Position numbers and translations under genes: made by a program | Shown here: piece after piece, positions 2 to 19,500 of the stretch | How positions within the stretch are numbered: position 1 is the first letter of the stretch | Layout of the letters: every line of letters begins with the position of its first letter | Virus record (IMG/VR): IMGVR_UViG_3300009593_000016 | Coordinates: 1-64,000 of that record | DNA: 64,000 nucleotides | Reading direction: 5' to 3' (one strand) | From: an uncultured virus (IMG/VR IMGVR_UViG_3300009593_000016) | Lineage: Duplodnaviria; Heunggongvirae; Uroviricota; Caudoviricetes | The notes under the pieces: generated by a model | The model's input: only the letters and a program-made list of their open reading frames with translations | Database searches by the model: none | Told to the model about the DNA's origin: nothing

Positions 2-562
2 TTAGAATGGTCCTGCAATTTGATCAGTTGTAGTTCCGTGTCCCAACTCAGGAAGTGGATCACCTACACTAGGTTCTATGACATCATCGATGTCTGGTGG
101 TGGAGGTAGTGTACCTAGTTCGTATCTAATATCTCTTAACTCTTGAAAATCTTTTTGCTTTGTACCTCCATCATATGCCCAAGCATATCCTTCTTCGATC
201 ATCTGTTCATTCAAAGAAACTAATTCCTCATTAATATACAACCAGCCAAGGAGTCTACCATACTTACCCATACCACCTTTAAGTTCAGTACGGATTGTAA
301 GTTCATCTCCATCACCTGCAATAGTATCTTCTAACTTCTGCTTTAACCAATTAGTAGCATCAATTCCTAATGCTTTCTCTTCTAAATCCCTTGTCCTCTT
401 CTCTGGGGTGTCTACTCCCGCAATTCTTACCCGTTCTTTCTTGTATAAATCGAATCCAAGATCTATGGTGACATCTATCGTGTCTCCGTCCAGTACCTTG
501 TTGATCTCCGTCACTCGGAAGTTGTAACAACTCTTCCTTGATGGGGGGGTCATCGCTCCCAT
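2..562 (-). CDS. Thermonuclease (staphylococcal nuclease, SNase-like) family protein
   Basis: Motifs KVLDGDTIDV, ERVRIAGVDTPE, GKYGRLLG, LNEQMIEEGYA; exact late promoter TATAAATA at 590-597 upstream. Confidence 0.85.
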   Translation of the reverse strand: MGAMTPPSRKSCYNFRVTEINKVLDGDTIDVTIDLGFDLYKKERVRIAGVDTPEKRTRDLEEKALGIDATNWLKQKLEDTIAGDGDELTIRTELKGGMGKYGRLLGWLYINEELVSLNEQMIEEGYAWAYDGGTKQKDFQELRDIRYELGTLPPPPDIDDVIEPSVGDPLPELGHGTTTDQIAGPF

Positions 563-716
563 AATCTAGCTCCAAATTATCTATCGCACTATTTATACTC
601 TGTTCTACTGGTGTCCTATTCTGCTCCGACTGGTAGTCCCTGATCTTCTGCTGCCATTCGTTCCCCAGTTGAGTGGGGCTGGTCGCTAATAACGGGATTA
701 GGATACCAATCATCAT
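360..716 (-). CDS. Hypothetical protein with hydrophobic N-terminus; overlaps the nuclease gene by about 200 nt in another frame
   Basis: 118-aa ORF MMIGILIPLLATS...; long overlaps on both sides make its status uncertain. Confidence 0.4.
   Translation of the reverse strand: MMIGILIPLLATSPTQLGNEWQQKIRDYQSEQNRTPVEQSINSAIDNLELDYGSDDPPIKEELLQLPSDGDQQGTGRRHDRCHHRSWIRFIQERTGKNCGSRHPREEDKGFRRESIRN
590..597 (-). promoter_or_regulatory. T4-type late promoter TATAAATA
   Basis: Exact gp55 consensus about 28 nt upstream of the nuclease ATG. Confidence 0.75.
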
Positions 717-795
717 ACTTGAAAATTATGTAGATACAAATAGATACACCGATTAGGAGAATCCCAATCATAATGTTAATCGACCATAGTATCAT
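616..795 (-). CDS. Small single-pass membrane protein (59 aa, not in ORF track)
   Basis: Manual translation MILWSINIMIGILLIGVSICIYIIFKYDDW...GAE*; ATGA overlap with the stop of the 792-974 ORF. Confidence 0.6.
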   Translation of the reverse strand: MILWSINIMIGILLIGVSICIYIIFKYDDWYPNPVISDQPHSTGERMAAEDQGLPVGAE

Positions 796-974
796 AGCAC
801 GGAAGAGTAATCGTTTCCTTCCTTAAAAATACTATACACGCTATGCGGGTGATTGTGAATATATTCAACGTCTTCTACGGCAATCATTCTTGCTTCGAAG
901 GAATCTTCGGCAGTTACACAAACCTCTTGTCTGTGTCTGGTATCGTCAAGATAACCAACGGTATAATGGGACAT
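792..974 (-). CDS. Hypothetical protein (60 aa)
   Basis: ATG start, stop coupled to the next gene, late promoter variant AATAAATA near 998-1005. Confidence 0.7.
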   Translation of the reverse strand: MSHYTVGYLDDTRHRQEVCVTAEDSFEARMIAVEDVEYIHNHPHSVYSIFKEGNDYSSVL

Positions 975-1000
975 TACGATCTTTCGAGTGTCCCAATTAT

Positions 1001-1099
1001 TTATTCCTTCTTAGGGCATTGTGTGGAAATATGGTCATAGCTTCCACACTTCTTACAGCAGTCTTTTTTCTCTGCTATGAACTCCTTAAAGGACTTCAT
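1001..1099 (-). CDS. 32-aa peptide: capsid-targeting-like leader plus CCHC zinc knuckle (not in ORF track)
   Basis: MKSFKEFIAEKKDCCKKCGSYDHISTQCPKKE*; ATGA overlap with the upstream stop; C-x2-C-x4-H-x4-C. Confidence 0.75.
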   Translation of the reverse strand: MKSFKEFIAEKKDCCKKCGSYDHISTQCPKKE

Positions 1100-1812
1100 T
1101 TTCCTGATACTGCTTTGTATGCTTTCTTAGCAAATGATACTGTGTCCTTGACACCTTCCTTTGCTCCTTTAGCAAATTCCTTAGCACGTTTCTCAGGTGC
1201 TTTACCCTTAGCACGTTGCTTCTTGTATGCTGCTTTAGCATCTCCTACTGCTTTGTTATGCTTCTCAACACCCTTCTTAACATAGGATGTTACCTTACTT
1301 AGAACACCTTCTTTCTTAGCAGGTTTCTTAGGTTGCTTAGCTTTCACTGTCTTAACAGTAGCAACAACCTTCTTCTGTGTAGCAGCTTTCTTCTTAGCAG
1401 GAGCCTTCTTGACAGCAGCTTTCTTAGGTGCGTCATCTTCATAATTTGTATTGTCTTCGTCACCATACTTATTCTTGGCAGCAGTGGTCTTAGCATACTC
1501 ACCTTTACCTGCTGTCTTACGTGCAGCATCACCAGCATCAACCTTTGCTTTAACCTTCTCATATGAAGGTGCATTTGCTGCTGCTTTCTTTGCTGCTCTT
1601 ACTGCTTCCTCAAGATATTCTGTTGGAGGATTTACTACAAAGTCAGTAAATTCTTCTAGTCCAATCTCTTCTACGATGAGATCGATACCTTCTTCGTTTA
1701 TACCTTCCTCAACAAAGAAATCAGTAGCTACTTCTATGCTTGATTGTACCCATTCCTCAGTCAATACTGCCTCAGGATTAGAGTCTACTAGGTACCGTGA
1801 AAAACTTTTCAT
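1096..1812 (-). CDS. Acidic N-terminal, Lys/Ala-rich (histone H1-like composition) C-terminal protein; putative head internal protein
   Basis: Start re-assigned to ATG 1812 (TAATG overlap; MKSFSRYLVD); KKAAVKKAPAKKKAA low-complexity basic tail. Confidence 0.75.
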   Translation of the reverse strand: MKSFSRYLVDSNPEAVLTEEWVQSSIEVATDFFVEEGINEEGIDLIVEEIGLEEFTDFVVNPPTEYLEEAVRAAKKAAANAPSYEKVKAKVDAGDAARKTAGKGEYAKTTAAKNKYGDEDNTNYEDDAPKKAAVKKAPAKKKAATQKKVVATVKTVKAKQPKKPAKKEGVLSKVTSYVKKGVEKHNKAVGDAKAAYKKQRAKGKAPEKRAKEFAKGAKEGVKDTVSFAKKAYKAVSGK

Positions 1813-1958
1813 TAAGCTGCTCCTTTGTTGTGGTCTGGGTGTCTGGGACAATTCTTTTCGTGTTTATCTATCCAAGCCTTAGAGTTCCAATGATTCTTTG
1901 GAGACTTAAGACCGCAGTATACACACTCGTACTGTCCACTTTCTAACAGTTTAGCCAT
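1812..1958 (-). CDS. Small putative C2HC zinc-binding protein (48 aa)
   Basis: Start re-assigned to ATG 1958 (MAKLLE); CVYC...HEKNC. Confidence 0.6.
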   Translation of the reverse strand: MAKLLESGQYECVYCGLKSPKNHWNSKAWIDKHEKNCPRHPDHNKGAA

Positions 1959-2187
1959 TAGCCAATTCCTCTGCTTTCTGATTCCATTCGGCAAATGATG
2001 AACTGCAATCAGGGGGTTGTGGGTATTTATATCCTTTCATCTTCCTCCATTTATTATGGAGTGCTCCCATCATCCAAGACTGACTGAGACTCTTTGGTCC
2101 ATTCTCAAGAAGATCTAGTTCGTACCTACTGCTAGTGTACCCTTTATACTCTTCTCTCCAATTGGAATCGTCCCACTCAGTTGTCAT
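1951..2187 (-). CDS. Hypothetical protein (78 aa, MTTEWDDSNWREEY...)
   Basis: Start re-assigned to ATG 2187, overlapping the end of the upstream gene; Trp-rich. Confidence 0.7.
   Translation of the reverse strand: MTTEWDDSNWREEYKGYTSSRYELDLLENGPKSLSQSWMMGALHNKWRKMKGYKYPQPPDCSSSFAEWNQKAEELANG
2024..2031 (-). promoter_or_regulatory. T4-type late promoter TATAAATA (intragenic)
   Basis: Exact consensus about 65 nt upstream of the 48-aa/238-aa/32-aa gene run. Confidence 0.55.
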
Positions 2188-2962
2188 AATGAAAGCTCCT
2201 TTTCTTAGTGTTTTTAGGATGTTTAGCACTTCTGACTTTATTGTCAGTAGTTTCACCATCTCCTCTAGGATGCTGACCTGCTTTTGTCTTACCTATATTG
2301 TAAGATGAACCAGGTTTCTTGGACTGAGTATCGTGTAAGCGTGCAGGTTTGTCCTTATCTTTTGTGATAACAGATTCCTGTCCGTGTTTTCTACCAAACC
2401 TACGAATGAGTTTGCCGTGCTTACGCTTTGACATTCCCTTACCAGGAGTGGTATGATACGATACTTCACTGCCCTGTTTGCCATCATCGTACTTATACTT
2501 TCCAACACTCTTCTTGTAACCGATACCCTTCTTCTTAAGATCTTTCTCAAGACCCTTTCGTTTCTTGCGGTTCTCGGTCTCACTGTCACCACGGTCAGCA
2601 GAAATGTGACCAGTGACTTGAGTCTTGGATTTGCTTACGGCTCTGGCTAGTCCTCCTTCGGAGATGAACTTCCCAAATGATAGCATACTATACCCCTGAG
2701 TGTGAAGGTTCATATCCACCCCCTTGACATCATTCCCCTTCTGGGCTTGCTGTACCTTAAGTCTTTGCTGTTGAATTTTCTTAATATTTAACATTAGCTG
2801 CCTTCTATCAAGCATCGCACCCTTCTTCTGGATGAGATTCAATCTTGCACTTGAACTAGATGGTGCTGCATTATTAGATGCTGCCCTAGCAGGAGGACGC
2901 TTTTCCTTCTGTGGTTTGATTGTTAAATTTTCTGTGGGTGATTTACCGTTAGCGTCTGGCAT
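2177..2962 (-). CDS. Highly basic protein with a possible internal in-frame start at 2686 (MLSFGKFISE)
   Basis: 261-aa ORF; C-terminal part has an ISADRG...G-YKK-VG-Y...E-S...GRKHGQESV pattern; K/R-rich. Confidence 0.75.
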   Translation of the reverse strand: MPDANGKSPTENLTIKPQKEKRPPARAASNNAAPSSSSARLNLIQKKGAMLDRRQLMLNIKKIQQQRLKVQQAQKGNDVKGVDMNLHTQGYSMLSFGKFISEGGLARAVSKSKTQVTGHISADRGDSETENRKKRKGLEKDLKKKGIGYKKSVGKYKYDDGKQGSEVSYHTTPGKGMSKRKHGKLIRRFGRKHGQESVITKDKDKPARLHDTQSKKPGSSYNIGKTKAGQHPRGDGETTDNKVRSAKHPKNTKKRSFHYDN

Positions 2963-2963
2963 A

Positions 2964-3509
2964 TCAGCCTCCCACTACTTGTACCTGTTCTACTACAACA
3001 CCACCGCTTCCAGATCCTGCGGTTAGTTTAACCACTCTGGAAATTACAGGTATGTTACCAGCAGTAGCATCAGCAGCAGATAATGCATAATCACCTGACG
3101 ATGAAGATGAATCAATATCAGTTGTAATAGTAGTGGCAGTAATAGCAGTTACTTTCTTTCCGTCAGCAATAGCAGATTCATATGCAGCGACAAACCCATC
3201 AGTATCTCCACCGTCTAGGGTCTCTACATAATCTCCAACACTAAATGTGTGGCGACCACCATTCGAATATCCTTCAACGGTTATTACTGAACCGTTAGCA
3301 TCAGTTGCACCAACAATCTTGGAGTGCTTTGCTTTACCTGCAGAAATTAATAATGCTTCTCCAGCTGCAAGTGTGATAGCAGGACCCGCGTCAACTTGAA
3401 TACTAGATGCTGCAGCGCAGTAACATCGTAGTGTACCCGTCTTCACTTTGATATAACCAGAACCTGAGGCACTGATTGTTTGCGTATCTAATACATTTAA
3501 TACTGACAT
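2964..3509 (-). CDS. Putative virion structural protein (181 aa, beta-rich)
   Basis: G/A/T/S-rich; late promoter variant GATAAATA at 3532-3539. Confidence 0.7.
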   Translation of the reverse strand: MSVLNVLDTQTISASGSGYIKVKTGTLRCYCAAASSIQVDAGPAITLAAGEALLISAGKAKHSKIVGATDANGSVITVEGYSNGGRHTFSVGDYVETLDGGDTDGFVAAYESAIADGKKVTAITATTITTDIDSSSSSGDYALSAADATAGNIPVISRVVKLTAGSGSGGVVVEQVQVVGG

Positions 3510-3530: not shown

Positions 3531-3956
3531 TTATTTATCCTGTTGGGACTTTAGAAATTTAGCAAGATCAGCTGTGCTCCCAACGAACATAGTATTATTT
3601 GTAACTGGACCAGAGATTTTAGCTGGACCCTCCTCAAGTTCTTGCATTTTCTTTTGGAGATCTATTAACTTATCCGTGGTATCTGCCACGTTCTTGATTA
3701 AGTTACCAGCAACTTCATATGATCTAGGTGAATCAGTCTGTCCAGCAACTTCAAGAATACCATCAACAGCCTCCTGTCCTTTCTCTATAAGAGAATAGAG
3801 ATTGCCTCTAGTGTACTCATAATCTTTGCTGACCTGTTCCTGCTTCTGTAAGATGCTAGGGTCTGGTCCGACATCAACGATATCAGTCTTTTCTTTAGGT
3901 ATAATAGATGTTTCTATATCGAGAGCATCTTCCATACCCTTAAACTTATTCGTCAA
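3531..3956 (-). CDS. gp16: Terminase small subunit (T4 gp16-like); start uncertain (TTG 3956 or the ATG of MEDALD near 3935)
   Basis: DYEYTRGNLYSLIEKGQEA, SPRSYEVAG, VTNNTMFVGSTADL; follows gp15. Confidence 0.88.
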   Translation of the reverse strand: MTNKFKGMEDALDIETSIIPKEKTDIVDVGPDPSILQKQEQVSKDYEYTRGNLYSLIEKGQEAVDGILEVAGQTDSPRSYEVAGNLIKNVADTTDKLIDLQKKMQELEEGPAKISGPVTNNTMFVGSTADLAKFLKSQQDK

Positions 3957-4755
3957 CTCCTGTGACTGGGTTTCTTGAGAGTCCATCCTGGAAATCACTA
4001 GTTAGTTCATTAAATCCGAAGTTATCATCTGGGTCTGCATCAACAGGATCAGGTGTAACAGTATACCTGACTTCTCTTGCAGCAGTTACCTTACTGTCGG
4101 TTGCAGTATCGACAATAGCCTTCTTAATAAGTCCTCCAGCAGATGTGACAGGACCGTATAAGTATGTCTTACAGGTAAAGGACATTGTATATATCAGAGT
4201 TCTTCTCGTTGTATAGTCACCTTCGTAATCATCTTCATAAGAACAAGAGTTTAATACAACTGGGAAGTCTTTAACATCACCAAGTTCAGGTACCAACTTA
4301 ATAGTTAGACTGAATACTGGTTGAAAATATGGTAAGATCTGCTCAATAATTTGCAGACCATCATCCTGATTCTTAGCAAGAATTGCTAATTCAAAATCTA
4401 TATTATAAGGTACTGGCATAAATGCCTTCTTCACTGCAGCAGTACCTTGTGTTTCTGGCGGTGAATACCTTATAGTTTGTGTTGGTGAAACCTTTCTTGT
4501 ACTATCATATGCAAAGTTTGTTATCTCAAATGATATTCTAGGTAAGGTAATCTGTGTAGCTTGCTTACCAGTAAGGTTTCCAGTTTGTTGGAGACGTGCT
4601 AAAAACTTTTGCTTTGGACCATATGCCAAAGGCACTTTCATATATTCATAATCCGTAGCAGTTTTCTTCCTACGTATTTCAATATTATTGAATAGTGTAC
4701 CGAAGGCGACAACGGTCTTTCTGAATATTTCGTTGTATGTATACGTACCTAACAT
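3946..4755 (-). CDS. gp15: Tail sheath stabilizer and completion protein (gp15)
   Basis: FGTLFNNI, VPLAYGPKQKFLARL, LPRISFE, QIIEQILPYFQP; synteny. Confidence 0.93.
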   Translation of the reverse strand: MLGTYTYNEIFRKTVVAFGTLFNNIEIRRKKTATDYEYMKVPLAYGPKQKFLARLQQTGNLTGKQATQITLPRISFEITNFAYDSTRKVSPTQTIRYSPPETQGTAAVKKAFMPVPYNIDFELAILAKNQDDGLQIIEQILPYFQPVFSLTIKLVPELGDVKDFPVVLNSCSYEDDYEGDYTTRRTLIYTMSFTCKTYLYGPVTSAGGLIKKAIVDTATDSKVTAAREVRYTVTPDPVDADPDDNFGFNELTSDFQDGLSRNPVTGVDE

Positions 4756-6428: not shown

Positions 6429-9400
6429 TTATCTTGTGAGAGCAGCGAGTGCAGCCTTAATATGTGCAACGGTTGTTACACTAGCGTCATTACCAATAGC
6501 ATTTAATTCAGTGTAAATTGCGTCAATGTCAGTGTCGTTAGTACCTGACTGAGTACCTTGTGCAGCAGTTGCATATGCAGTTGCAGCAGTGGTAGCAGCA
6601 GTGCCGAGTCCAAGGGTTGTCCTTGCAGCAGCAGCGTCTGCGTCATCAATTAAAGTTCCACCAAAGGTGCTTACAGCAGATGCAGCAAGAGCATTATCAG
6701 CAGTGGTACCCTGTGCAGCAGTAGCGAAGTCTCCTGTAGCAGAAACAGCAGCAGTTCCAAGACCAAGAGTGGTTCTGGCAGCAGCAGCGTCTGCGTCATC
6801 AATTAGAGTTACACCGAATGCACTGACAGTAGAAGCAACGAGTGCATTGTCTGCCTTAGTACCTTGAGCAGCAGTTGCGTATGCAGTGCTTGCAGTGGTA
6901 GCAGCAGTGCCTAAACCAAGAGTGGTTCTAGCAGTAGCAGCGTCAGCATCATCAATCAGAGTGCCACCGAAGGTGCTTACAGCAGACGCAGCGAGTGCGT
7001 TGTCAGCAGTGGTACCTTGAGCAGCCGTTGCATAACTGGATGCAGCAGCAGCGACCTTAAGGTCTGCTCTTGCATCAGCACGTGCGTTGGTGTAGTAAAG
7101 ATTGGTTGACCCTTCTGATAGATCATCAGTGTCAGCAGCAGCAATTCTTGCGTCTGCCCTAGCATCTGTATAGTAAAGGTTACTACCCTCACTAAGATCT
7201 CCAGTATCAGCAGCAGCAATACGTGCGTCTGCTCTTGCGTCGGTGAAGAATATGTTAGTAGATCCTTCAGTAACGTTATCAGTATTGATGTCTCCCTGAG
7301 TAACACTTAGAGTACCAGAACTGTGTGTGATACCTGTGCCGTATGTAAAGTGTGTCCTCGTGCGAGCAGCAGTAGTGAATAGATTTGTGCTTCCCTCTGT
7401 TACATTGTCTGTATCAATATCTGCCTGTGTGACAGTAATAGTTCCAGAAGAAATACCAATACCAGTACCGCCTGTAAAGTGTGCCCTTACTTCAGCAGCA
7501 GATGGTCCTGTATATGTAATTACACCTGATGTACTGTTATATGCAAGTGATCCGTCTCCACCACCATCTGTAACTGAAACAGATGCTCTTGCTCGTGCAG
7601 TTGTATGGAATAGATTTGATGTTCCTTCTACTACATCGTCAGTGGTAAATTCACCAAAGTCTGCAGATAATGTATATGTACCAGCAGTATCATCATATAC
7701 TTTAGCGATACCAGCACCAGCAACAAATAGGGCATCAATCCTATCATCCACTCTTTCGTTAGTGAAGTATAGATTTGTAGAACCCTCACTCAAAGCATCT
7801 GTATCGTGGTTAGCAATACTACCAACCTCTGACTCGTGGAATGTTAAGTTACCAGTAACGTTTAAGTTACCCTGAACCTCAAAGTTCGTAATTGAAACGA
7901 AGTTAGAAACTTCAAGTGTGTTAGAACTTGGATTGTACTTTAAGTTATCTGAGTCAGTACGTACCTCAGTGTATCCTGATGTAGCAGATACAAATGTTGG
8001 ATAGTAAGTAAGGTTAGTAGAAGTGGTGTTTGTAATATCAACTAGGTCTGACTTATCTGCAGTACCAGTTAAATCACCAGTTACATTACCCGTGATCTGT
8101 CCCGTTACACCGAGTGTTCCACCGATAGTGGTGTTACCTGTAACGCCAAGAGAACCAAGAGTTGAAGCACCAGTAATCTCAGCATTACCACTTGTTGAAT
8201 GGAATGTAATCTTATCTTGGCTTGATCCATTTTGTAATATTAAAGTCTTAGATGCACCACGTAGGACTACATTGTCCTTAAAGAGTGATGTACTGTTCTG
8301 TGTGATAGTTCCATTAAAGGTGGAGTTGCCATCTACATTCAGAGTGGTATCAAAGTCAACTGCACCTGTTACATTAAGGTCAGCAGTGACTGTTGTGTTC
8401 TCATCAACATCAAGTGTACCATCGATAACTGTGTTACCAGTTGCAGAAGCAATAGTAAACTTGGTACCGTTAACGGCAAAGTTACCACCAACAGTTAAGG
8501 TAGAATCAAGTACGGCAGTAGAAGTTACATTTACTGATGATAATGTTGTTGCTTGAGTTACTCCAAGAGTACCAGCAATTAATGTGTTACCTGTGTTTCC
8601 AACAACAGTAAAGTTACCAGCACCGACATTCAAGTCTGTACCAATATATGCTTTCTTAGTTACTGCAATACCACCAGCAGTGAATACAGAAGCAGAGTTA
8701 TTATTTGCTGCTGTAGCATCTGAGGTATTATCAAATCTAGATTTACCTGTATGAGTCTGTGTTCCTTCGGTGTCAACGTTACCATCTAGTTTCGTTGTAC
8801 CATATACTCTTAAATTTGTACCAAGGTTAAGGTTCTTAGCAATAGATATACCACCAGCAGTCTGTATTGCACCACTAGCAGCGTATGTTCCTGCTGCTAT
8901 TGAAGCGTCTGCAGTATTTGTTACCGTTGCAACACCAGTAACATCGAGAGTGTTGGTTACATTTGTTGCACCGTTTACATCCAAAGTTCCATCAACTGCT
9001 GTATTACCAGTAGCAGATGCAACCGTAAACTTAGTTGCGTTAATACTAAAGTCACCTGTGATAGATCCAGTACCACCAACAGTTAAGTTAGAAGATCCAC
9101 CAACAATATTAACTGTAGAATTTAATGTAGAAACACCAGTAACACCAAGGGTTCCTGATGATAGTACATTACCAGATGAAGCAGCAACACTAAACTTATT
9201 AGATACTGCGAAGTCATTTGTGACATCTAAGGTACCTGTGATATCTACGTCACCACCAACGGATGCATCATCAGTTACTACGAGATCATCACCCACATAC
9301 AGATCAAGACCAATAGAAGCACCACCCCCGACAATGAGAGCACCACTTGAGTTATTAGTTGCATTAGTGGTATCAAAAAGTTTAATACTACCTGCATCAA

Positions 9401-12400
9401 TACCTGAACGATTACCAGAGAATACTTCAGAAGAGTTAGTAGCACCGTCATAAAGTGCGAACCTAGATGCTGACTCATCCCATCCAAAGAAACCAATACG
9501 TGCTTGTGAATCATAATATCTAAATTCTATACCACGATCTTTCTGATCATTAGAACCAGGAGCAGTATCTCCACCCAAAGTCATTATAGGATCATCAACC
9601 GTGATTACAGTGCTGTTAAATGTAGTAGTGGTACCTTGAACTGTAAGGTTACCTGTTATTTCTGCGTTACCACCTACTAATAAATTCTGTCCAGCAGCAA
9701 GAGTTACGGGGGAATTAAACGTAGAAGTCGCTTCTACTGTTAAAGCATCACCAGTTGCATCACCAATAGTGACTTGAGATCCGTTAAATGATACTTCACG
9801 GTTAAATGTTGCATCACCGTGTACAAGTAAAGTACCAGCAGATGATGTACCCTGTCCTGTACGTCCAATTGTTGTATTACCAGACTCACCTAATACTTCA
9901 AATTCGTATGTATCAGTAGTAAGATCCTTACCAATATAAAGATCATCACCCACATAGAGGTCAGTACGTATACCAGCACCACCTTGTACTACCAAGTTGT
10001 TTGCTGTATCAGATGCGAACGTACCTGTATGTGCTGTACCAGAACCAATGCGTACCTTATAACGTACATCGTTATAGTTAGAGGTATTAAAGTTCTCAGT
10101 ATTTCCTAGGTCCTTTTCAGAAATGACCCCATTCAGACTTACGTTTCCATTAAGAAGTAAGTTACCAGCAACGTAACCACCACCATCTAATCTGAATGTA
10201 CCATAATCACCACCACTAATTACAAAATTATCGCTTCCATCTGTACTGATAGTAGGATCATCAACCTTCTCAAAGTGGATCAATCCAGCAGCATTAATGG
10301 AACCTTCTATGTCAGTATTACCATTGGTACTACTAACAACAAACTTGTTTGCACTACCATTTGTGATAGTAAATGTCTTTCCAGTGACATCCATTAGGAA
10401 GTCATTATGGAATACTACATCACCATCTACATCTAATTCTGCATTGAGGGTAACATTGTTATCTACATCCAACGTGCTGTTGAATGTTACTCCACCGTCT
10501 ACGTCAAGAGTACCATCACTATGTGTGTTACCGTTGTCAGTATCTACATCAAATACGCTAACACCAGCAGCAGTTTGAATATCAAATTTCTTATTGTCTG
10601 CTTTGATAATAAGGTTGTCTGTGATCTCAGTTTCTAACTGAACATCTAGTGTACCTTCTATTACTGTATTACCATTATCATAATCAACAGTAAACTTATC
10701 TACTCCAGCAGCAGTCTGTATATTAAATGACTTATTATCTGCTTTTAATAGGAAGTTATTATTAATCTCGGACTGTCCTGCAGTAGTAACAGTTCCACCA
10801 ATATGAACATTCTCAGAGAAACCTGCACCACCTGTTACGACAAGAGTACCTGAAGTGGTGGACGTGGATCCTGTGTTAGTGGTAAGCCTGAGGTTACCAG
10901 CGATAAGAGGAGAGTCTGTGCCAGCGAATACTTCAGAGGTGTTAGTGGCAGAGTCGATAAACCTATATCCACCAGTGCCAGACCATAAATTAGCGTCTGC
11001 ATAGTCCTCATCCCATCCAAAGAAACCTATCTTAGCAGATCCATCATAGTATCTGAACTCAATACCACGGTCTTTATTATCATCTGAACCTGGAGCAGTA
11101 TCACCACCCAGTGTAAAGATAGGATCATCAATGGTTACAACAGTTGAATTAACTGTAGTTGTTGTACCATCTACCTGTAAATCTCCACGGACTTGGACTA
11201 GACCTGAGACAGCATCGTCATCATTAGGGTCTAATACTAGAGTAGCATTAGTACTACTTAAAGTATTATCTTGGAATTGGAATCCTTCTACATTAACTCT
11301 ATTACTTACATTAGTAGCAGAGATTGTAATGTCATTATCTGCAGTAATATTTAAAGCTGCAGTACCACCACCTGCATTTGTGATAGCAATATCAAATGTA
11401 CGTGCAGATCCAGAGTTCTGAGTTGACTGGAATGTTAAGTTACCGTCTCCAGTCTTGTCTAGAGTTTGGTTAACCCCTCCGTCGAGGGTAATGTCCGCAT
11501 CACTGAAATAAAGTCTCGCGTTAATATCAACCTCTCCAGCACCACCATCACCCGTATTATTTGCCCCAAACAGTAGATTACCACTGGTGTCATTAACTTT
11601 AACATAATTAAGATAGTTGAAACCTCTGTAACCAGTACTAGCATCTAGTTCCTGGTCTAATTCAAAGTCTTCCTTGGTGTTACCATCTGCAAAGGAAACT
11701 CTATTGTTTTGAAGTTGAGTGTTATCAACACCCATTAATGCAATGCCTACGTGTCCGTTAGCATCAACATCAAAATCTTCTTGTGCAAAGGATGCTAATC
11801 CTTTCTGTTCTACAGCAACGTTATTGCAGAATCTCCAACTGCCTACGGTACCACTGGTATGAGATGGTTCTCCACCACCAGCAGCGATGTCAGCAATTGC
11901 TTGATATACTTTACCGTTTGCTTCTAATATATCATATCTACTATATGTCGTACCAGCACCATAAGTATCGTACTTAGAACCTTCTGTTGCTGTGGCAATA
12001 GGTACGTTAGTTGCTGTAGTAATTCTTCCGTATCTGTCTACACTAAATTTAACAGCGTTAACAGTTTCGGTACCATATGGTTCACCGTTTGAACCACCTG
12101 CAGCTACAGATATTAATGCTTCTGTATTATAGTTACCAACAACAACTGCTGTGTCAGCAAGATCAATAAATGGGTTTGATGTAGCACCGTCAGCATCAGT
12201 AAATATAACTCTACCAGCACCACCAGTTAGATTTCTAGTTACAATTTGACCTGCAGCTTGTCTAGCAAGAAGACCAAATGTGGTCATTCCAGCAAGAGAA
12301 GTTAGATCAGTATCTAAAGGCTGTGCGTCAATAATACCATATTCAGATAACGTAGCAGCAAGAGATGCACCAACTACCCTACCTCTTGAGTCAACCGTAA

Positions 12401-12833
12401 CCATCGAATAGTTAGCAGTTGCATCAGGATCATTAGGATTATAATGAGGTAATGATGGTACCAGTTCTAAGTTAGTCGCAAGGTTTAAGTTAGCAGAACC
12501 ATCAAACGATCCTGAACCTGTAATAGAACCAGTTAATTGAATTTGGCGAGCGTTGGCAAGACGTGTCGCAGTAGAGGCATTACCAATTAATGTAGCAGAT
12601 ATTGCACCAGCTTCGAAGTTACCGTCAGCGTCTCTCTTTACAAGTGTATTAGCAGCGTTTGATTCTGTCTCCAAAGGTCGCTCATATTTTAATGAGTTCC
12701 AAGGGGTTACTCCATCACCAATTTTGATACGTGACGTATCTATCTCAATTCCAAGTTCTCCTTGGGCTAGTATCGGGTTAATGTTTGCCCACTGCTGAGC
12801 ACCATCACGCCTTAATTGAATTCTATTTGCCAT
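6429..12833 (-). CDS. Long fibre protein (2134 aa) with Mtd_N-like N-terminus, beta repeats and an Ala/Thr-rich C-terminus
   Basis: RIQLRRD---W---NPILAQGELG-E-DT---KIGDG-T-WN-L-Y; repetitive G/T/V; sits where T4 has wac, just before g13. Confidence 0.85.
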   Translation of the reverse strand: MANRIQLRRDGAQQWANINPILAQGELGIEIDTSRIKIGDGVTPWNSLKYERPLETESNAANTLVKRDADGNFEAGAISATLIGNASTATRLANARQIQLTGSITGSGSFDGSANLNLATNLELVPSLPHYNPNDPDATANYSMVTVDSRGRVVGASLAATLSEYGIIDAQPLDTDLTSLAGMTTFGLLARQAAGQIVTRNLTGGAGRVIFTDADGATSNPFIDLADTAVVVGNYNTEALISVAAGGSNGEPYGTETVNAVKFSVDRYGRITTATNVPIATATEGSKYDTYGAGTTYSRYDILEANGKVYQAIADIAAGGGEPSHTSGTVGSWRFCNNVAVEQKGLASFAQEDFDVDANGHVGIALMGVDNTQLQNNRVSFADGNTKEDFELDQELDASTGYRGFNYLNYVKVNDTSGNLLFGANNTGDGGAGEVDINARLYFSDADITLDGGVNQTLDKTGDGNLTFQSTQNSGSARTFDIAITNAGGGTAALNITADNDITISATNVSNRVNVEGFQFQDNTLSSTNATLVLDPNDDDAVSGLVQVRGDLQVDGTTTTVNSTVVTIDDPIFTLGGDTAPGSDDNKDRGIEFRYYDGSAKIGFFGWDEDYADANLWSGTGGYRFIDSATNTSEVFAGTDSPLIAGNLRLTTNTGSTSTTSGTLVVTGGAGFSENVHIGGTVTTAGQSEINNNFLLKADNKSFNIQTAAGVDKFTVDYDNGNTVIEGTLDVQLETEITDNLIIKADNKKFDIQTAAGVSVFDVDTDNGNTHSDGTLDVDGGVTFNSTLDVDNNVTLNAELDVDGDVVFHNDFLMDVTGKTFTITNGSANKFVVSSTNGNTDIEGSINAAGLIHFEKVDDPTISTDGSDNFVISGGDYGTFRLDGGGYVAGNLLLNGNVSLNGVISEKDLGNTENFNTSNYNDVRYKVRIGSGTAHTGTFASDTANNLVVQGGAGIRTDLYVGDDLYIGKDLTTDTYEFEVLGESGNTTIGRTGQGTSSAGTLLVHGDATFNREVSFNGSQVTIGDATGDALTVEATSTFNSPVTLAAGQNLLVGGNAEITGNLTVQGTTTTFNSTVITVDDPIMTLGGDTAPGSNDQKDRGIEFRYYDSQARIGFFGWDESASRFALYDGATNSSEVFSGNRSGIDAGSIKLFDTTNATNNSSGALIVGGGASIGLDLYVGDDLVVTDDASVGGDVDITGTLDVTNDFAVSNKFSVAASSGNVLSSGTLGVTGVSTLNSTVNIVGGSSNLTVGGTGSITGDFSINATKFTVASATGNTAVDGTLDVNGATNVTNTLDVTGVATVTNTADASIAAGTYAASGAIQTAGGISIAKNLNLGTNLRVYGTTKLDGNVDTEGTQTHTGKSRFDNTSDATAANNNSASVFTAGGIAVTKKAYIGTDLNVGAGNFTVVGNTGNTLIAGTLGVTQATTLSSVNVTSTAVLDSTLTVGGNFAVNGTKFTIASATGNTVIDGTLDVDENTTVTADLNVTGAVDFDTTLNVDGNSTFNGTITQNSTSLFKDNVVLRGASKTLILQNGSSQDKITFHSTSGNAEITGASTLGSLGVTGNTTIGGTLGVTGQITGNVTGDLTGTADKSDLVDITNTTSTNLTYYPTFVSATSGYTEVRTDSDNLKYNPSSNTLEVSNFVSITNFEVQGNLNVTGNLTFHESEVGSIANHDTDALSEGSTNLYFTNERVDDRIDALFVAGAGIAKVYDDTAGTYTLSADFGEFTTDDVVEGTSNLFHTTARARASVSVTDGGGDGSLAYNSTSGVITYTGPSAAEVRAHFTGGTGIGISSGTITVTQADIDTDNVTEGSTNLFTTAARTRTHFTYGTGITHSSGTLSVTQGDINTDNVTEGSTNIFFTDARADARIAAADTGDLSEGSNLYYTDARADARIAAADTDDLSEGSTNLYYTNARADARADLKVAAAASSYATAAQGTTADNALAASAVSTFGGTLIDDADAATARTTLGLGTAATTASTAYATAAQGTKADNALVASTVSAFGVTLIDDADAAAARTTLGLGTAAVSATGDFATAAQGTTADNALAASAVSTFGGTLIDDADAAAARTTLGLGTAATTAATAYATAAQGTQSGTNDTDIDAIYTELNAIGNDASVTTVAHIKAALAALTR
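6552..7034 (-). repeat. Tandem 153-nt (51-aa) coding repeat, 3 copies plus a partial
   Basis: YATAAQGT-ADNAL-AS-VS-FG-TLIDDADAA-ARTTLGLGTAA; Tyr codons at 7034 and 6575 are exactly 3x153 apart. Confidence 0.9.
7070..7805 (-). repeat. Six copies of the T-D-x-x-x-EGS-x-NL-Y/F-x-T-x-AR motif in the fibre
   Basis: Read directly from the translation. Confidence 0.8.
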
Positions 12834-13563: not shown

Positions 13564-13571
13564 TATTTATA
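13564..13571 (-). promoter_or_regulatory. T4-type late promoter TATAAATA followed by a 5-prime hairpin
   Basis: Exact consensus overlapping the upstream stop; GAGAC..AACCC/GGGTT..GTCTC stem at 13525-13560. Confidence 0.8.
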
Positions 13572-16500
13572 GATCGGAGAGTGCAATCACTCTCAAGTTC
13601 TTAACTATAGGAACGAAAGATTGGTTGGAAGAACTAAGTAAGATCTTAATCTGAGCTATTGTAAACTCTGGTGTATCTAAAGAATATTCGAAGTCTCTAT
13701 ATAAAAGATCTTCGGTCTTCTGTATACTCTTATCTTCTAAACCATTACCATTGAAGTATGTAAAACCTATTTCATCTACAGAGAGTGTAGTTCCGATAGG
13801 TACTATCTTATACATTACACGAATCTCAGTAGCAGGATGCCTCCAAGCTTCGAAACGTACCTTCAATGAGTTTGCTGGATTGAGCAAGTTAATAAGTTTG
13901 GTAATGTAGACTGCATCAGTCTTATCACCAGTATTCTTCTCAGCATCATTCTCACCAATTCCAAGGTTATTAACCCTGTTCATAGTGGTGATTAGAGAAC
14001 AACGGTCTGTATCAATAACAGGAGAAATACTCTTGTTAGTGGTTGTTAAAAGCATCTGAACGTTCAGAGACTTAGAACCAGACAGTCTAGCGTCCTCGTT
14101 TACTTGAGAGCATACCAATTTAGGAGAATCAAAATAATTATCCTCATTGGCAATCATATCATAATATACACCATCATTAATAAATGATGCCTCGTCAAGA
14201 TTAGATCCATTTCTAATTGAGGTACCACTAACAATATTAATTCTAGGATCAATAGTTGTTTCAGGATACACTGTCATTTGAAGTTGTGGATACACCTGAT
14301 CGATCTGTACGTTCTGTGTAGCAGTTACATTACCACCACCAGTTGTAATACCAGATGTAGATACAGATGTTACAGCTAATTTATAGGAGTCTATAGTTGG
14401 AGCTCCAATTGCAGTGTGCAATTTGTTAATCTCCGTTAATGGAATACCATCTAAGTTATAACATTCAATAATACTAGATGAACTATGTGCCAAAGCAGCA
14501 GTTCCACCTAATCCTCTTGAACCTGAAGGTAGAGTTATGATCTTACCGTCAGCAGAGATAGCACTATACTCACAGATCTCCCAATGCTGTGTTGGAATCT
14601 CAGGATCCCTAATAATAATAAAACCTTTGTTTGATGATCCAATTACTTCACCATTAATAATGGTATGGAAAGCAGCTGCATCAGCAACGTGAAGGGAGAA
14701 TGTACTAGACACACCATCCGTGGCAGTAATACCATTGGTATGATATGCAGAGTCAATTACTGTTGGTGAGACTTCAGAAACAACTCCTTCTAACTTAACT
14801 GAGTTAGAAACATCGTGCATACAATGGTTTGCGTGACGTACTGTAACTTCTGTTGCCTTATTGTAGTAAGAAATTGGAGCAGAAGGATACCTATTAATAT
14901 CATCGCCACCAGCAACAACACCACTGGAAGCGATGGTACCCGATGCAACGGTTACTGAATCTACAACTTGTGTGATTGGATCTGCGTCAGCGAATGTACC
15001 AGTTACAGACTTGATAGTTACCTTAGAGGTACCAGCATCCCAAGCAGTAACGGTACCAGATGCACCAGATCCATTAGTAATTTGTTCAGCTAACTGGAAT
15101 GTACCAGATACACCAGTTAACGTAATCTCAGCAGTTGATCTAGAAGATACCAAACGATAAATGTATGTTGAACCTGATGCAACACCTTGACGGAATGCTC
15201 CGACTAGATCATCAAGAATCAAATATGCATTAGATGAACCAGATACACCCTGCACAACCTCTCTGACAATAGCAGATGGTGCAGGTGAAGTATCAGTCTG
15301 TGTAAGTTCAGCACCAATAGTGAAGTTAGCTAAGTGATTATCAAGGATAACCTTAACTTCTGGTTTAGTAGTCTCAACTGGATTGAGTCTTAATGGAGCA
15401 ATACCACCGTTACCAATTGCTAGTTCAGCATTATTGAACCACGCTGTACCAGTCTGGTTTGGTGTAAACTCCGCTTTATATAATATAAACTTAAGGTCTT
15501 CGTACTGGTCAGCAGTCCAAGTAGATGCGTTCTGTGACTTGAATAGTACACCAGCATAAGGCTGTTCAGATATGGTTCTATCACTGGTTACATCGTCTTC
15601 ACCCATTCGAGAGATCCAAAGCTTATACTCGTTGGAGTCAGATAGAACAACAACGCAATAATCACGATTCTCTGTAGTATAGACTGGAGAAGGGAAGGTA
15701 AACTTCGTAGGAATTGTACCATTTTCTGATAGATTTATTTGGCTAGGAAGTAGAGTAACGTCAGAGAAAGCAAGAACTTTAGTGGTAGGATAACCATTAG
15801 CCATTTCCCTAACCTGTACCGAGACAGGAATTCTTTCATCTCTTGTTCTGAAGTAAAGGTCTACTGATGTTATGAATGCACCACCCTTAGATTCAACCAA
15901 GAATGATTGTGCAAGAGGGTCATACCAACCTGTGTCTCTAACACTGGTTGTTGTAGCATTAACAACTCTATCCTGAGTTACTGTATCTCTTACAATATCT
16001 GCATTTCTAACTGCAAGGATGGTCTGTTGCTTGGTCTCGATAACTCCAGATGCAACATAATTGTGTTGTGCAGCAGAATCAACTTCACCAGGTACTCTAG
16101 AGTCAGTAGGAGAAGTGGTAATACGTACAACACGAGTACCAGTTGCAAATCTTGGGTTAGTAGATACAGCAGGATTAGGAATCCAGATAATACCATCAAG
16201 GTTACCATTAGTATCTGATATCAAACGCTTAGGTTTAACAACAGAACGAGCACCAGAGGTAGAACCAACTAGGATCTCACCCTCTAATGGGTTACCATAA
16301 TATGCACCAGCAACTGTCTCAGACATTGTTTGTATATCAATGTTGAGTAATGGTGTAGTAGATGCATAAGATGTTGGTAGATCTGAAGTATCGTATGGTG
16401 ATTTACCATCATCAAATCCTGTCTCAGGACTGATCAACTTCAATCTACATCCAGATGTCTGTCCAACAACTGTCTCTCCAACAACATAAGGAGTATCATT

Positions 16501-19500
16501 TGTTCTAATATCCTCGACAGTATTCTTAATAACCTCAATCAACTTAGGAGTTGTATAGAAGTTAATATTAACGTTATCAATAAATGCGTAGAACCTAGTA
16601 TTAGGCTTCAAACGCTGAATCTTATATGCAATATTTCTTGAACGTACAAATGGTACTACTGTTCTTTCAATAGTTCTATCACCTAATGACTGTCTGTCAA
16701 TACGTGGTGTAACACGAGTCCTTAAACCAGAACGTACTTGTGAACTTGTAGTTCTTGTAGTTGTAGTATGAATCCATCTGATTCCTGGTCCTCTAAAGAA
16801 CTGAGAGTTAGTTGAAGATGTAGAAGCAGACCACTGTGTCCTCCAAGAGTTCCACTGTGTAGGAACAAGACCTGTGTTAACATCTCCACCAAGACGTTGA
16901 ATCTGTGCGTTGAAGTCACCTTCTATATTAACAACACGATCTCCTGCACGTCTTGTATCAATCCAGTCATCTGATGATGGATATAAATCAAGTCTACCAA
17001 TATAAGCAAACACGTTGAATGGGTTTACATTCTCAACACGTGATGCATATGGTTGTTTAATAAAGACAGTTTCAGTATATGGAAGTAATATTGTACCTGT
17101 TTCAGTTAAGGTTACACCAGAAGAACCAGCAGCATTATATTTTAAAGATACGTTAGTAGTATAATGAGAAGGACGTAGTGTACCTTCCTTAAAGTCTAAT
17201 GCAGCAGAGAAATCTTCGTGTGTCTTTGCTGTAGAGTCGAAAGAAGTAAAGTTGTCAACTAAGAAACCATTCTTAAATTTATCGAAACCATCAGCATCCT
17301 TAATAGGTAATGATGATGTTTCTAACTCAAGCATTGACAGTGAGGTATAGAACTCTAATTGGTCAACACGTTTTTCAATAGCACCGATATCACGCATAGT
17401 GAATCGTCTATTATTCTCTCTAGAAATAGCAACATCTTCAGGACCATATCCATATGGTTTGTGAACCATCGTTGCTAGTAACATAGCATTATCAATATTT
17501 GCTGGAAGTTCACCAGCTTCACCAGATATACCCTTAACGATCTTAAATGTTTGCTGATCAGTTAGGAATAGTTTATCTGTACGTCCAAGATAGAAATCAT
17601 AGTCACAACGGAAGTCAGACTCTGGCTTAGGAATGTCAATAATAGTAGCGTTATTTGCAACACCACCTGACGCAAATCCCCTATCTTTAAAGTCTAAGGA
17701 TGCACAGTTAACAAAGTAAGGTGCTGTTACAGTACCTGAACCAGATAGTACAGGTGTTACAGCAGGTCTAAAGTCAAGAACATCTCTTAATTGCTTAGTC
17801 TCACCATCCTGTGTGAATGATGGGATCTTATCATAATCAATACCAATGTAAGATTCGGAAGCAAAGTAGTCACCAGTTGTTTCGTGAACGAATCTATCAA
17901 ATACAATCATCAATTTCCTTAGAGGTTTGGTTGATGATGCATATCTAATTAGTTTACCAATATCATAATAGTGACCTTGCTGGTTAGAATCAAGGAAGAA
18001 TGATGGAGTAATATTCTTACTACCATTAACAATAGATCCTTCAGCATCATTAACAATACCAGTTAATGTAGCATCGTTAGCATCAAAACCACGTACACTC
18101 TCACCTAAGAGGAAGAACTGATCGTTCTCATATACGTAATGACAGACATACGAAACAGGGTTAAAGTTGATAACACGAGCTTTTGCCTTGGATGTAAGTC
18201 CCTCAATGATAGTTCCTTTTTTAAAGATTGTTGCGTCCTGGAATGTTGCATTAGGAATCTGTGCAGCATTATCATCGAGTGACTCGTAGACGGCGTGTAC
18301 TTTGTAGACATCAGTAGCTCCCAATGAAATTTCTTCGTCTTCAATACGGGTACCATAAAGTGAACCGTATGACAGACCATATTTCTGAGCATCAGAAGAA
18401 ATAGCGGTTCTCTCAACCTTCATTACTTCCATCTCAGTAGCATTCTTTAACTTCTTCTCTGCCTGGTTCTTGGAAACAGATGTATGTAAACGACAAGAAG
18501 TGATACCTGTTAAACCCGTAACCGTTAGAGAGGTTCTAGGTGTACCAGTAGTGTTAAATGTTAAGTTAGGTTCTATATCAATAGTTGTACCAGTAGCAAC
18601 AGATCCTCCAAGAACTGTCAAACTATAATGATCCTTATCATATGAAAGGAACTGTTCATCTGCTGGTAGTGAGATCGTAAAGTCACTAGCACCAGTAACA
18701 GTTATATCATCAAAGGTACGTGCAATGATTGCTGATTCGTCAGCAATAGATTTAATAGACTCTTTAGGCATCTCAATCAGCATATCTGCTGTTGCCTTAT
18801 CATATATCTGTGCTCTCGTTCTAATAAGTGCAGGGAAATCTCCATTACCTACACCAGTGGCAGTACCAGATGCTGTTAAAGCACTAGTTACTTCACCCTG
18901 GATACTACCACCAGTAGTATCAATACGGTTTATAGTGTATGTATTTGTACCATCAGGAGTTAAGATATCACCAGGACGTAGGTCGATGGTGAAGTTTGAC
19001 TTGGTACCAGTAAGTGTACCAGTATTAATATTGAATGATGTACCTGAAATAACTCTTACATCATCAAGTACTAAGTCTCCAGAGAAGATGATTGCGTTAG
19101 TATCAGGATCTCTACCTGTTACACCTTTAGCATCAGTAAGCTGGAACTGGAAATGGTTGGTTAATGAACCTACTTCAACACCATCTCTCTCAATTATTTC
19201 ACTATCACGGAATGTACCATAGACCTGGTACACCATAAAAATATCATTGTTAACAACATCATTAACAACAAATGCTTTTGCTTTTGATGTTCTTCCACGA
19301 ATGACAGCACCCTGACTCATTGTGGCATTCTGATTCAAATGGAATGCTGTTAATGGTTGAATATCAAATAGATAAGTCTTATAAACACAATCTGCTGCAG
19401 TTACATTAGTACCACTATGATATTCAAATGCAGCAGTACGAGCATATCCAACGATCTGTCCTGAAGCATTCAAACCATTAGGTCTTACATCACGAAATTC

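Follow-up and report, generated by a model that had tools for sequence, protein, structure and literature searches.

Can a T4-like cyanophage carry in its head a zinc-knuckle peptide of 22 residues? The question is raised by an open reading frame (ORF) of 32 codons in a stretch of 64,000 nucleotides, here called the window, from an uncultured virus (IMG/VR record IMGVR_UViG_3300009593_000016). The window comes from a T4-like cyanomyovirus (Kyanoviridae-like). The ORF, referred to below as the knuckle ORF, encodes a ten-residue leader like the capsid targeting sequence (CTS) of the T4 internal proteins (IPs), and then a single zinc knuckle of the Cys-Cys-His-Cys (CCHC) type. The best-supported mechanism, to which we give a probability of about 0.5, is that the peptide would be packaged in the head, cut down to 22 residues and passed on to the host, each of these steps being one that we infer.

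The knuckle ORF and its conservation

The knuckle ORF begins with ATG and has the following parts:

1001..1099, minus strand: knuckle ORF, 32 codons plus stop; leader, then a single CCHC zinc knuckle
1070..1099, minus strand: leader MKSFKEFIAE (residues 1-10), a T4 CTS-like propeptide with F4, F7, I8 and E10
1004..1069, minus strand: predicted mature peptide of 22 residues, if cut after I-A-E
1058..1060, minus strand: an additional Cys (C14), directly ahead of the knuckle
1016..1057, minus strand: knuckle C15-x2-C18-x4-H23-x4-C28, from a Pfam match and alignment to solved knuckles
1096..1099, minus strand: ATGA stop-start overlap with the upstream gene (ATG of the knuckle ORF at 1099..1097; upstream TGA ending at 1096)

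An initial annotation, made from the letters of the window, had described this peptide as a capsid-targeting leader fused to a retroviral-type knuckle and coupled in translation to the upstream gene. The peptide quoted there is identical to our translation of the minus strand, the start of the ORF does overlap the upstream stop as ATGA, and the CCHC spacing is as claimed. Pfam zf-CCHC (PF00098) matched residues 14-30 at 21.0 bits (E 3.5e-4), a marginal pass of the gathering cut-off of 20.8 bits. In the contig that holds the window (77,079 bases), translated in six frames, there is one instance of the pattern C-x2-C-x4-H-x4-C, as against a mean of 0.08 and a maximum of 1 in 50 mononucleotide shuffles of that contig. 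The predicted mature peptide has a computed mass of 2.5 kDa, a pI of 8.8 and a charge of +2.8. An AlphaFold2 model of the full product, built with no alignment and no metal, had a mean pLDDT of 69.7, with a helix at residues 4-18 and low confidence in the knuckle. The 32-mer was assigned to no family in a PHROGs search, and a protein atlas search with it returned no usable match.

To find relatives, we used degenerate DNA patterns and, as a protein query, the window's own 41-codon open frame. A back-translated knuckle pattern identified nine IMG/VR contigs, all nine with the same 32-codon ORF and the same ATGA overlap, and a slightly looser pattern identified 15 metagenome loci, six of them with a 32-codon ORF. 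The protein collection (NCBI, ENA) held one unnamed cluster of three 32-residue sequences, present on 17, 7 and 5 contigs. Start, frame and ligand residues are intact in all 15 loci with the 32-codon ORF and in the three cluster members. The initial annotation had made its case turn in part on conservation of this frame and had named conserved CCHC spacing as a check, and both are kept: the frame at the same length in the 9/9 IMG/VR and 6/15 metagenome loci, and the spacing in 14/14 phage-like metagenome loci, where the fourth ligand Cys stands at H+5 though the search pattern had left that position free. The 32-residue peptide gave one useful match by tblastn (L002), and megablast of window positions 600..2300 against the phage collection gave a single record covering 10% of the query. 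A search for longer proteins containing the 41-codon frame found none, which is weak evidence, as embedded forms were found by DNA pattern.

Among the known alleles, only I8V, D13E, T26S and K31E vary, with every Cys and His fixed. Across four DNA alleles, the ratio of non-synonymous to synonymous polymorphism (pN/pS) was 0.09-0.28 in the four pairs with a non-synonymous change, and the most distant pair, the window and allele L028, differs by six synonymous and three non-synonymous changes (P(<=3/9)=8.6e-4 under neutrality). The sampled alleles share 87-99.6% identity along 1.3 kb, and the 26-nucleotide spacer 3' of the stop has diverged almost completely between alleles, an ATAAATA motif excepted. 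We consider it very probable that the knuckle ORF is a real gene. Contigs from four RNA-library runs (three studies) cover parts of 700..2300, the remaining parts being uncovered, and a 151-nucleotide contig among them (X16, depth 2, with seven letters other than those of the window) spans 986..1100 and so the whole knuckle ORF; these contigs give no strand, may derive from carried-over DNA and cannot establish transcription. As a separate observation, one metagenome contig of 366,152 bases (L055, L065) has the 32-codon ORF twice, at a distance of about 193 kb, which may reflect a concatemer, the joining of two related genomes during assembly, or an assembly error.

The closest solved chains were the nucleocapsid (NC) of Rous sarcoma virus (RSV; 2ihx, E 0.0019) and the NC of HIV-2 (2ec7 and 2e1x). 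Like retroviral NC knuckles, the window peptide has C-x2-C-x4-H-x4-C spacing and a Gly following the second Cys, and it shares with RSV NC 2ihx a basic flank ending in C-P-K-K. Unlike them, it has Lys at the place past the first Cys where the three best-matching solved chains have Tyr or Trp, Asp where Gly precedes the His, an extra Cys ahead, and a single knuckle with no flanking domains. The aromatic residue after the first Cys of retroviral knuckles stacks on bases. With Lys for Tyr/Trp and Asp for Gly, therefore, the comparison does not imply that the peptide binds single-stranded nucleic acid as retroviral knuckles do. Of the nucleocapsid-type knuckle that had been proposed, the spacing holds and PF00098 matches, but the aromatic residue is absent.

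The leader, its cargo and the modular family

The T4 genes ipIII and ipII both start with MKTYQEFIAE (NC_000866). The window leader is identical to it at 7/10 positions, so that the value given for IPIII in the initial annotation is reproduced from the T4 record and applies equally to IPII, which has the same ten residues. T4 ipI starts with MKTFKEF (NC_000866), of which 6/7 are identical to the start of the window peptide, and has I-T-E at residues 17-19. According to a review of T4 head assembly (PMC9026906), T4 propeptides are 10-19 residues long, CTS residues 4 and 7 are the main determinants of targeting and residues 8 and 10 those of processing, and Asp at position 10 blocks processing while targeting is kept. 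With F4, F7, I8 and E10, the window leader matches all four determinant positions named in that review, and T4 IPI also has F4 (NC_000866). The leader fits a T4-type tag on every sequence criterion tested.

A loose regular expression for the leader matched three times in the six-frame translation of the 77-kb contig, and each match is the start of a gene in the same neighborhood: the knuckle ORF and two genes upstream of it.

1096..1812, minus strand: Lys/Ala-rich gene, 238 residues from the ATG at 1812, leader MKSFSRYLVD
2177..2686, minus strand: SAM-lyase-like gene (T4-GC110 family), 169 residues, leader MLSFGKFISE; PF23780, 31.9 bits versus 28

The Lys/Ala-rich protein has an acidic N-domain and Asp at leader position 10. 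Its L-T-E at residues 17-19 takes the position of I-T-E in the 19-residue propeptide of T4 IPI. It matches phrog_3477 and is 53.5% identical to part of PSSM7_106 of P-SSM7, a 632-residue ORF. The SAM-lyase-like gene matches phrog_26015 and phrog_12788, and has homologues in 31 cyanophage records.

Back-translated, the leader identified 36 IMG/VR loci, compared with a chance of about 2^-45 per site by arithmetic estimate. It stands at the start of an ORF in 35 of these (with at most 37 in-frame open codons upstream). The loci yield 22 distinct complete ORFs of 38-389 residues, 20 of them without a knuckle and 17 with a cargo pI above 8. As a positive control, one such ORF on a 116-kb contig (L023) corresponds to phrog_8111, 'internal virion protein', and the leader pattern thus recovers true T-even internal proteins. 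In whole cyanophage genomes, the strict pattern had one match in P-SSM2 (PSSM2_115) and two in S-SZBM1 (gp084 and gp085), at one locus per genome adjoining that genome's SAM-lyase-like gene, and a reversed-pattern control had no matches. The leader is found on P-SSM2_114 and _115 and on S-SZBM1 gp084 and gp085, the same tag on several cargo proteins per phage. A relaxed pattern recovered T4 ipII, ipIII and gene 61.1 together with PSSM7_194 of P-SSM7, and found no matching ORF in Syn9, S-PM2 or S-SM1. The product of T4 gene 61.1 (L077 667..831) is a hypothetical protein of 54 residues with the CTS-like start MKTFKEFIKE.

The gp21-type protease (PF03420, Peptidase_S77) is encoded in four of the five longest leader-bearing contigs, and in two of five contigs with the knuckle ORF (E 6e-35 and 6e-36), the other three being fragments of 7-11 kb. 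The window's own 77-kb contig stops before the head genes. Judged by these sequences, unrelated and mostly basic cargo proteins share the leader as an N-terminal tag in phages with a gp21-type protease. The likeness to T4 IPI, IPII and IPIII lies in an N-terminal propeptide, here with aromatic residues 4 and 7, I8 and E10, and in basic cargo in a T4-like phage with a gp21-type protease. The leader-bearing genes are also diverse and clustered, a pattern described for T-even relatives. Unlike the T4 precursors of 95-193 residues, which have no CCHC, the cargo here consists of 22 residues with one zinc knuckle. It has no sequence in common with any T4 IP, and the window phage infects cyanobacteria. 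Packaging and cleavage are features of the T4 proteins and are predicted for the window peptide.

The distribution of the knuckle indicates that it is a mobile, self-contained module occurring in several architectures. In the marine virus AG-345-P14 and in seven metagenome loci, it is embedded in Lys-rich ORFs that are 239-357 residues long. At locus L060, the leader MKTLKQFQIE and then a knuckle form the start of a 191-residue ORF, which is ATGA-coupled to an upstream Lys-rich gene. This ORF has 320 homologues at E <=0.001, and the family figures given here rest on the best 120 of the 320. A leader-like N-terminus is present in 57 (strict) to 65 (loose) of the 120, and leader plus knuckle in ten. 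All share a C-terminal module (ELNRY ... RDTRGT), and are otherwise composed of shuffled short modules. The residue before the C-terminal module is Glu in 120/120, V, I or L stands two positions ahead of that Glu in 114/120, and in one protein (P0018) the F-L-S-E of the leader directly adjoins the module. The [VIL]-x-E at this joint has the form of a gp21 cleavage site, and could also simply belong to the module. As sequences, these marine phage proteins look like polyproteins with protease sites at their joints.

Modular family members: P0011-P0130; L001 3302..5200; L051 887..3010; L070 7133..8464; L079 235..1722
Further members: PSSM7_106, PSSM7_194, Syn9 gp114, the S-SM1 T4-GC119 protein, phrog_3477

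One member of 143 residues (P0015) aligns to window 1099..1004 through its residues 1-32 only (68.8% identity, E 5e-11), and tblastn with the shared C-terminal module found no match in the 77-kb contig. The window gene is thus a truncated form of a longer design, of which it keeps the head. The compared alleles are all truncated already and differ mostly at synonymous positions, which argues that the stump has been kept for a function. The window gene resembles the family in its type of leader, its N-terminal knuckle (as in 10 of the 120), its ATGA coupling to a Lys-rich gene and its location after gp16, but ends right after the knuckle without further modules, and has I at leader position 8, where the full-length knuckle relatives have Q. 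The C-terminal module is rare in cultured phages (three records, with S-CRM01 counted twice). Two cultured-phage proteins, S-SZBM1 gp084 (L051 3137..3634) and PSSM7_194 (L078 1447..1965), combine the leader with a DUF6321 domain and a short stretch rich in Cys; this stretch in gp084, C-x2-C-G-S-C-x4-C, is a possible all-Cys cousin of the knuckle.

Genomic setting

The genes and motifs around the knuckle ORF, from one end of the window through gp16, are:

2..562: staphylococcal-nuclease-type endonuclease (Pfam)
974..792, minus strand: next gene 3' of the knuckle ORF, its ATG 23 nucleotides past the ATAAATA at 998..1004
998..1004, minus strand: ATAAATA overlapping the stop of the knuckle ORF, conserved in both alleles
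1812..1994, minus strand: small Cys/His ORF, likely start Met at 1958, the first gene past the promoter-like motif at 2030
2024..2030, minus strand: ATAAATA ahead of a unit of the Cys/His ORF, the Lys/Ala-rich gene and the knuckle ORF
3531..3998, minus strand: gp16, terminase small subunit (phrog_445, E 4.8e-54), flanking the variable gp16-gp17 region
590, 998, 2024, 3532, 12877, 13564, 22322, 25910, 53954, 56434 and 63757, minus strand: ATAAATA motifs

The stretch between gp16 and gp17 is described as a hot spot of variable genes by Sullivan et al. 2010 (PMC3037559). The gene order of the window parallels that of P-SSM7 between gp16 and gp17, and its gp16 is 62.7% identical to that of S-SZBM1. 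The 11 ATAAATA motifs of the window all lie on the minus (coding) strand, their total being below the shuffle mean of 20.5. Eight are 21-43 nucleotides upstream of the next ATG, and seven of these ATGs are the starts of listed ORFs; for the eighth motif, at 2030, the next ATG is out of frame. ATAAATA resembles the T4 late promoter consensus, and these motifs are likely late promoters.

In S-SZBM1, a small Cys/His protein (C-x2-C ... H ... C) is conserved as gp083 (L051 3003..3140), located between leader-bearing genes. The SAM-lyase-like module of the same phage is the C-terminus of a 707-residue protein, in which a leader-like motif ending in REFIAE is internal and lacks a Met. In the structural region of the window, the minus strand holds giant ORFs at 27295..53883 (8862 residues), 13567..20760 (2397 residues) and 6429..12833 (2134 residues).

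Proposed packaging, its alternatives and their meaning

The mechanism that we consider best supported can be laid out as follows. A probable late transcription unit in the variable region after gp16 would end with the translationally coupled knuckle gene. Residues 1-10 of its product would serve as a T4-type targeting sequence and propeptide, and residues 11-32 would form a Lys-rich peptide holding one zinc through CCHC. Guided by its leader, the peptide would enter the prohead's scaffolding core, the phage's gp21-type protease would cut after I-A-E, and the basic 22-residue knuckle would remain with the packed DNA and enter the host alongside it. Candidate roles in the head or the host are DNA-bound ballast, a nucleic-acid binder and a decoy for a host factor; the initial annotation had suggested a possible nucleic-acid chaperone or anti-defence factor. 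The gene probably arose when a member of the longer leader-knuckle family lost its C-terminal module, and would since have been kept by purifying selection.

Virion proteomes bear on this mechanism. Table S8 of Sullivan 2010 reports T4-GC119 in S-SM1 virions with 13 peptide counts, and T4-GC403, a homologue of window 2964..3509, with 60. The P-SSM7 member of T4-GC119 starts with MKTYSQFIEE. For S-SZBM1, Table 1 of PMC9146016 lists 30 virion proteins, among them S-SZBM1_195, _190 and _197 and not S-SZBM1_194, _192 or _191, at a modest depth of 24/32 predicted structural proteins identified. From gene order and lengths (265, 87 and 424 residues), the three absent proteins are the leader-bearing gp082, gp084 and gp085. 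Lys-rich proteins yield few useful tryptic peptides. Despite Lys-rich digestion and modest depth, the absence is a real negative. By the same mapping of lengths, S-SZBM1_195 is gp081 (L051 622..885), a hypothetical protein of 87 residues encoded right after gp16; its emPAI of 2.66 is the third-highest in the virion table (PMC9146016).

Together with that negative, several points weigh against packaging. The S-SM1 virion protein of T4-GC119 is without an N-terminal leader, and since Syn9, S-PM2 and S-SM1 have no leader-pattern ORF, their virion proteomes in Table S8 cannot test the leader. T4 gene 61.1 is leader-like and yet annotated only as hypothetical, so that a leader alone is no proof of packaging. 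Full-length knuckle relatives have Q at position 8 (for example, MKSLKQFQKE), so that the family as a whole does not share cleavage after residue 10. Phages with short genomes (35-45 kb) also have the DUF6321 module that is found in the wider family. A peptide of 2.5 kDa might escape from the prohead. On the side of the knuckle, the narrow Pfam pass and the Lys in place of Tyr/Trp count in the same direction, as does the fact that translation, packaging, cleavage and zinc binding are all deduced.

Several of these points would equally suit a small zinc-binding protein that acts in the infected cell, its leader being the N-terminus of the family and no capsid address: the three S-SZBM1 proteins missing from the virion list, the merely 'hypothetical' label of gene 61.1, the Q at position 8 in full-length relatives, and the internal, Met-less motif in the fused S-SZBM1 gp082, which could be a structural element. 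We regard this as possible but doubtful, because it leaves aside that all four T4 determinant positions are matched, that the tag sits on unrelated, mostly basic cargo (17/22) in contigs with a gp21-type protease, and that the same pattern retrieves a genuine 'internal virion protein' family. The [VIL]-x-E at 114 of the 120 listed module junctions and the location of the gene among late-type promoter motifs, adjoining virion genes, also speak against it. It is unlikely that the knuckle ORF is a decaying stump left by deletion of the C-terminal module, appearing conserved because the sampled relatives are close. The alignment of P0015 through residues 1-32 only, the absence of the module from the 77-kb contig, the high identity of the alleles over 1.3 kb and the failure of PHROGs and the protein atlas to recognize the ORF would all be expected of such a remnant, but the truncated alleles differ mostly synonymously (three non-synonymous of nine changes), while the adjacent spacer has diverged almost completely. 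No start, frame or ligand has been lost among the 15 loci and three cluster members, and the knuckle is self-contained and recurs in several architectures.

The overlap with the upstream gene also admits the reading that ribosomes slip by -1 on an A-run and so extend the C-terminus of the Lys/Ala-rich protein by these 32 codons, which would then be no cistron of their own. The frames do overlap at GGAAAATGA, the small frame is open for nine codons upstream of its ATG, and knuckles lie inside larger Lys-rich proteins in other phages. The overlap site, however, is not a canonical X-XXY-YYZ heptamer, the knuckle ORF retains its own ATG and a complete leader of N-terminal type, and the same ATGA precedes the 191-residue relative at L060, which is plainly a separate gene. 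ATGA overlaps are an ordinary coupling device in phage operons, and such a slip is very improbable here. Finally, the shortness of the ORF, the Pfam score at threshold and the low AlphaFold confidence in the knuckle might suggest that the ORF and both of its motifs are chance products of AT-rich DNA. This is refuted by the expectation of 0.08 CCHC motifs per contig, by a leader found at 36 loci against about 2^-45 per site, by the conservation of the ORF with its synonymous bias, and by its homology to the N-terminus of a family of 143-191 residues.

Within the limited literature searched, we found no paper linking the CTS to cyanophages and none on a zinc knuckle in a phage virion. The term 'internal protein' is absent from Sullivan 2010, Clokie 2010 and Petrov 2010, as are CTS and 'capsid targeting' from Clokie 2010 and Petrov 2010. 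A broader reading, which goes beyond packaging of the knuckle peptide and which we offer tentatively as the less probable case, is that the T4 CTS is an address tag kept from coliphages to marine T4-like cyanophages, and that the region after gp16 is an array of tagged, packaged and injected cargo. In the window, this cargo would comprise a SAM-lyase-like enzyme, a histone-like Lys/Ala-rich protein and the 22-residue knuckle, and the prohead protease would cut the longer family members, as polyproteins, at [VIL]-x-E. If the array exists, no packaged phage effector smaller than the knuckle would be known, and the proteins that uncultured marine phages inject could be predicted by scanning for the leader.

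SAM lyases are a class of enzyme used by phage T3 against restriction, and one packaged in the head would be an injected anti-restriction enzyme. A 22-residue zinc knuckle, if packaged, would be a new kind of head content. Should the tag not work in cyanophages, the strong conservation of the motif would still need explaining. T4-like cyanophages are among the most abundant marine viruses; if the tag does work in them, injected proteins, including the SAM-lyase-like enzyme, could be recognized purely by sequence through a motif of ten residues, and the motif would offer a way to load foreign cargo into the heads of cyanophages.

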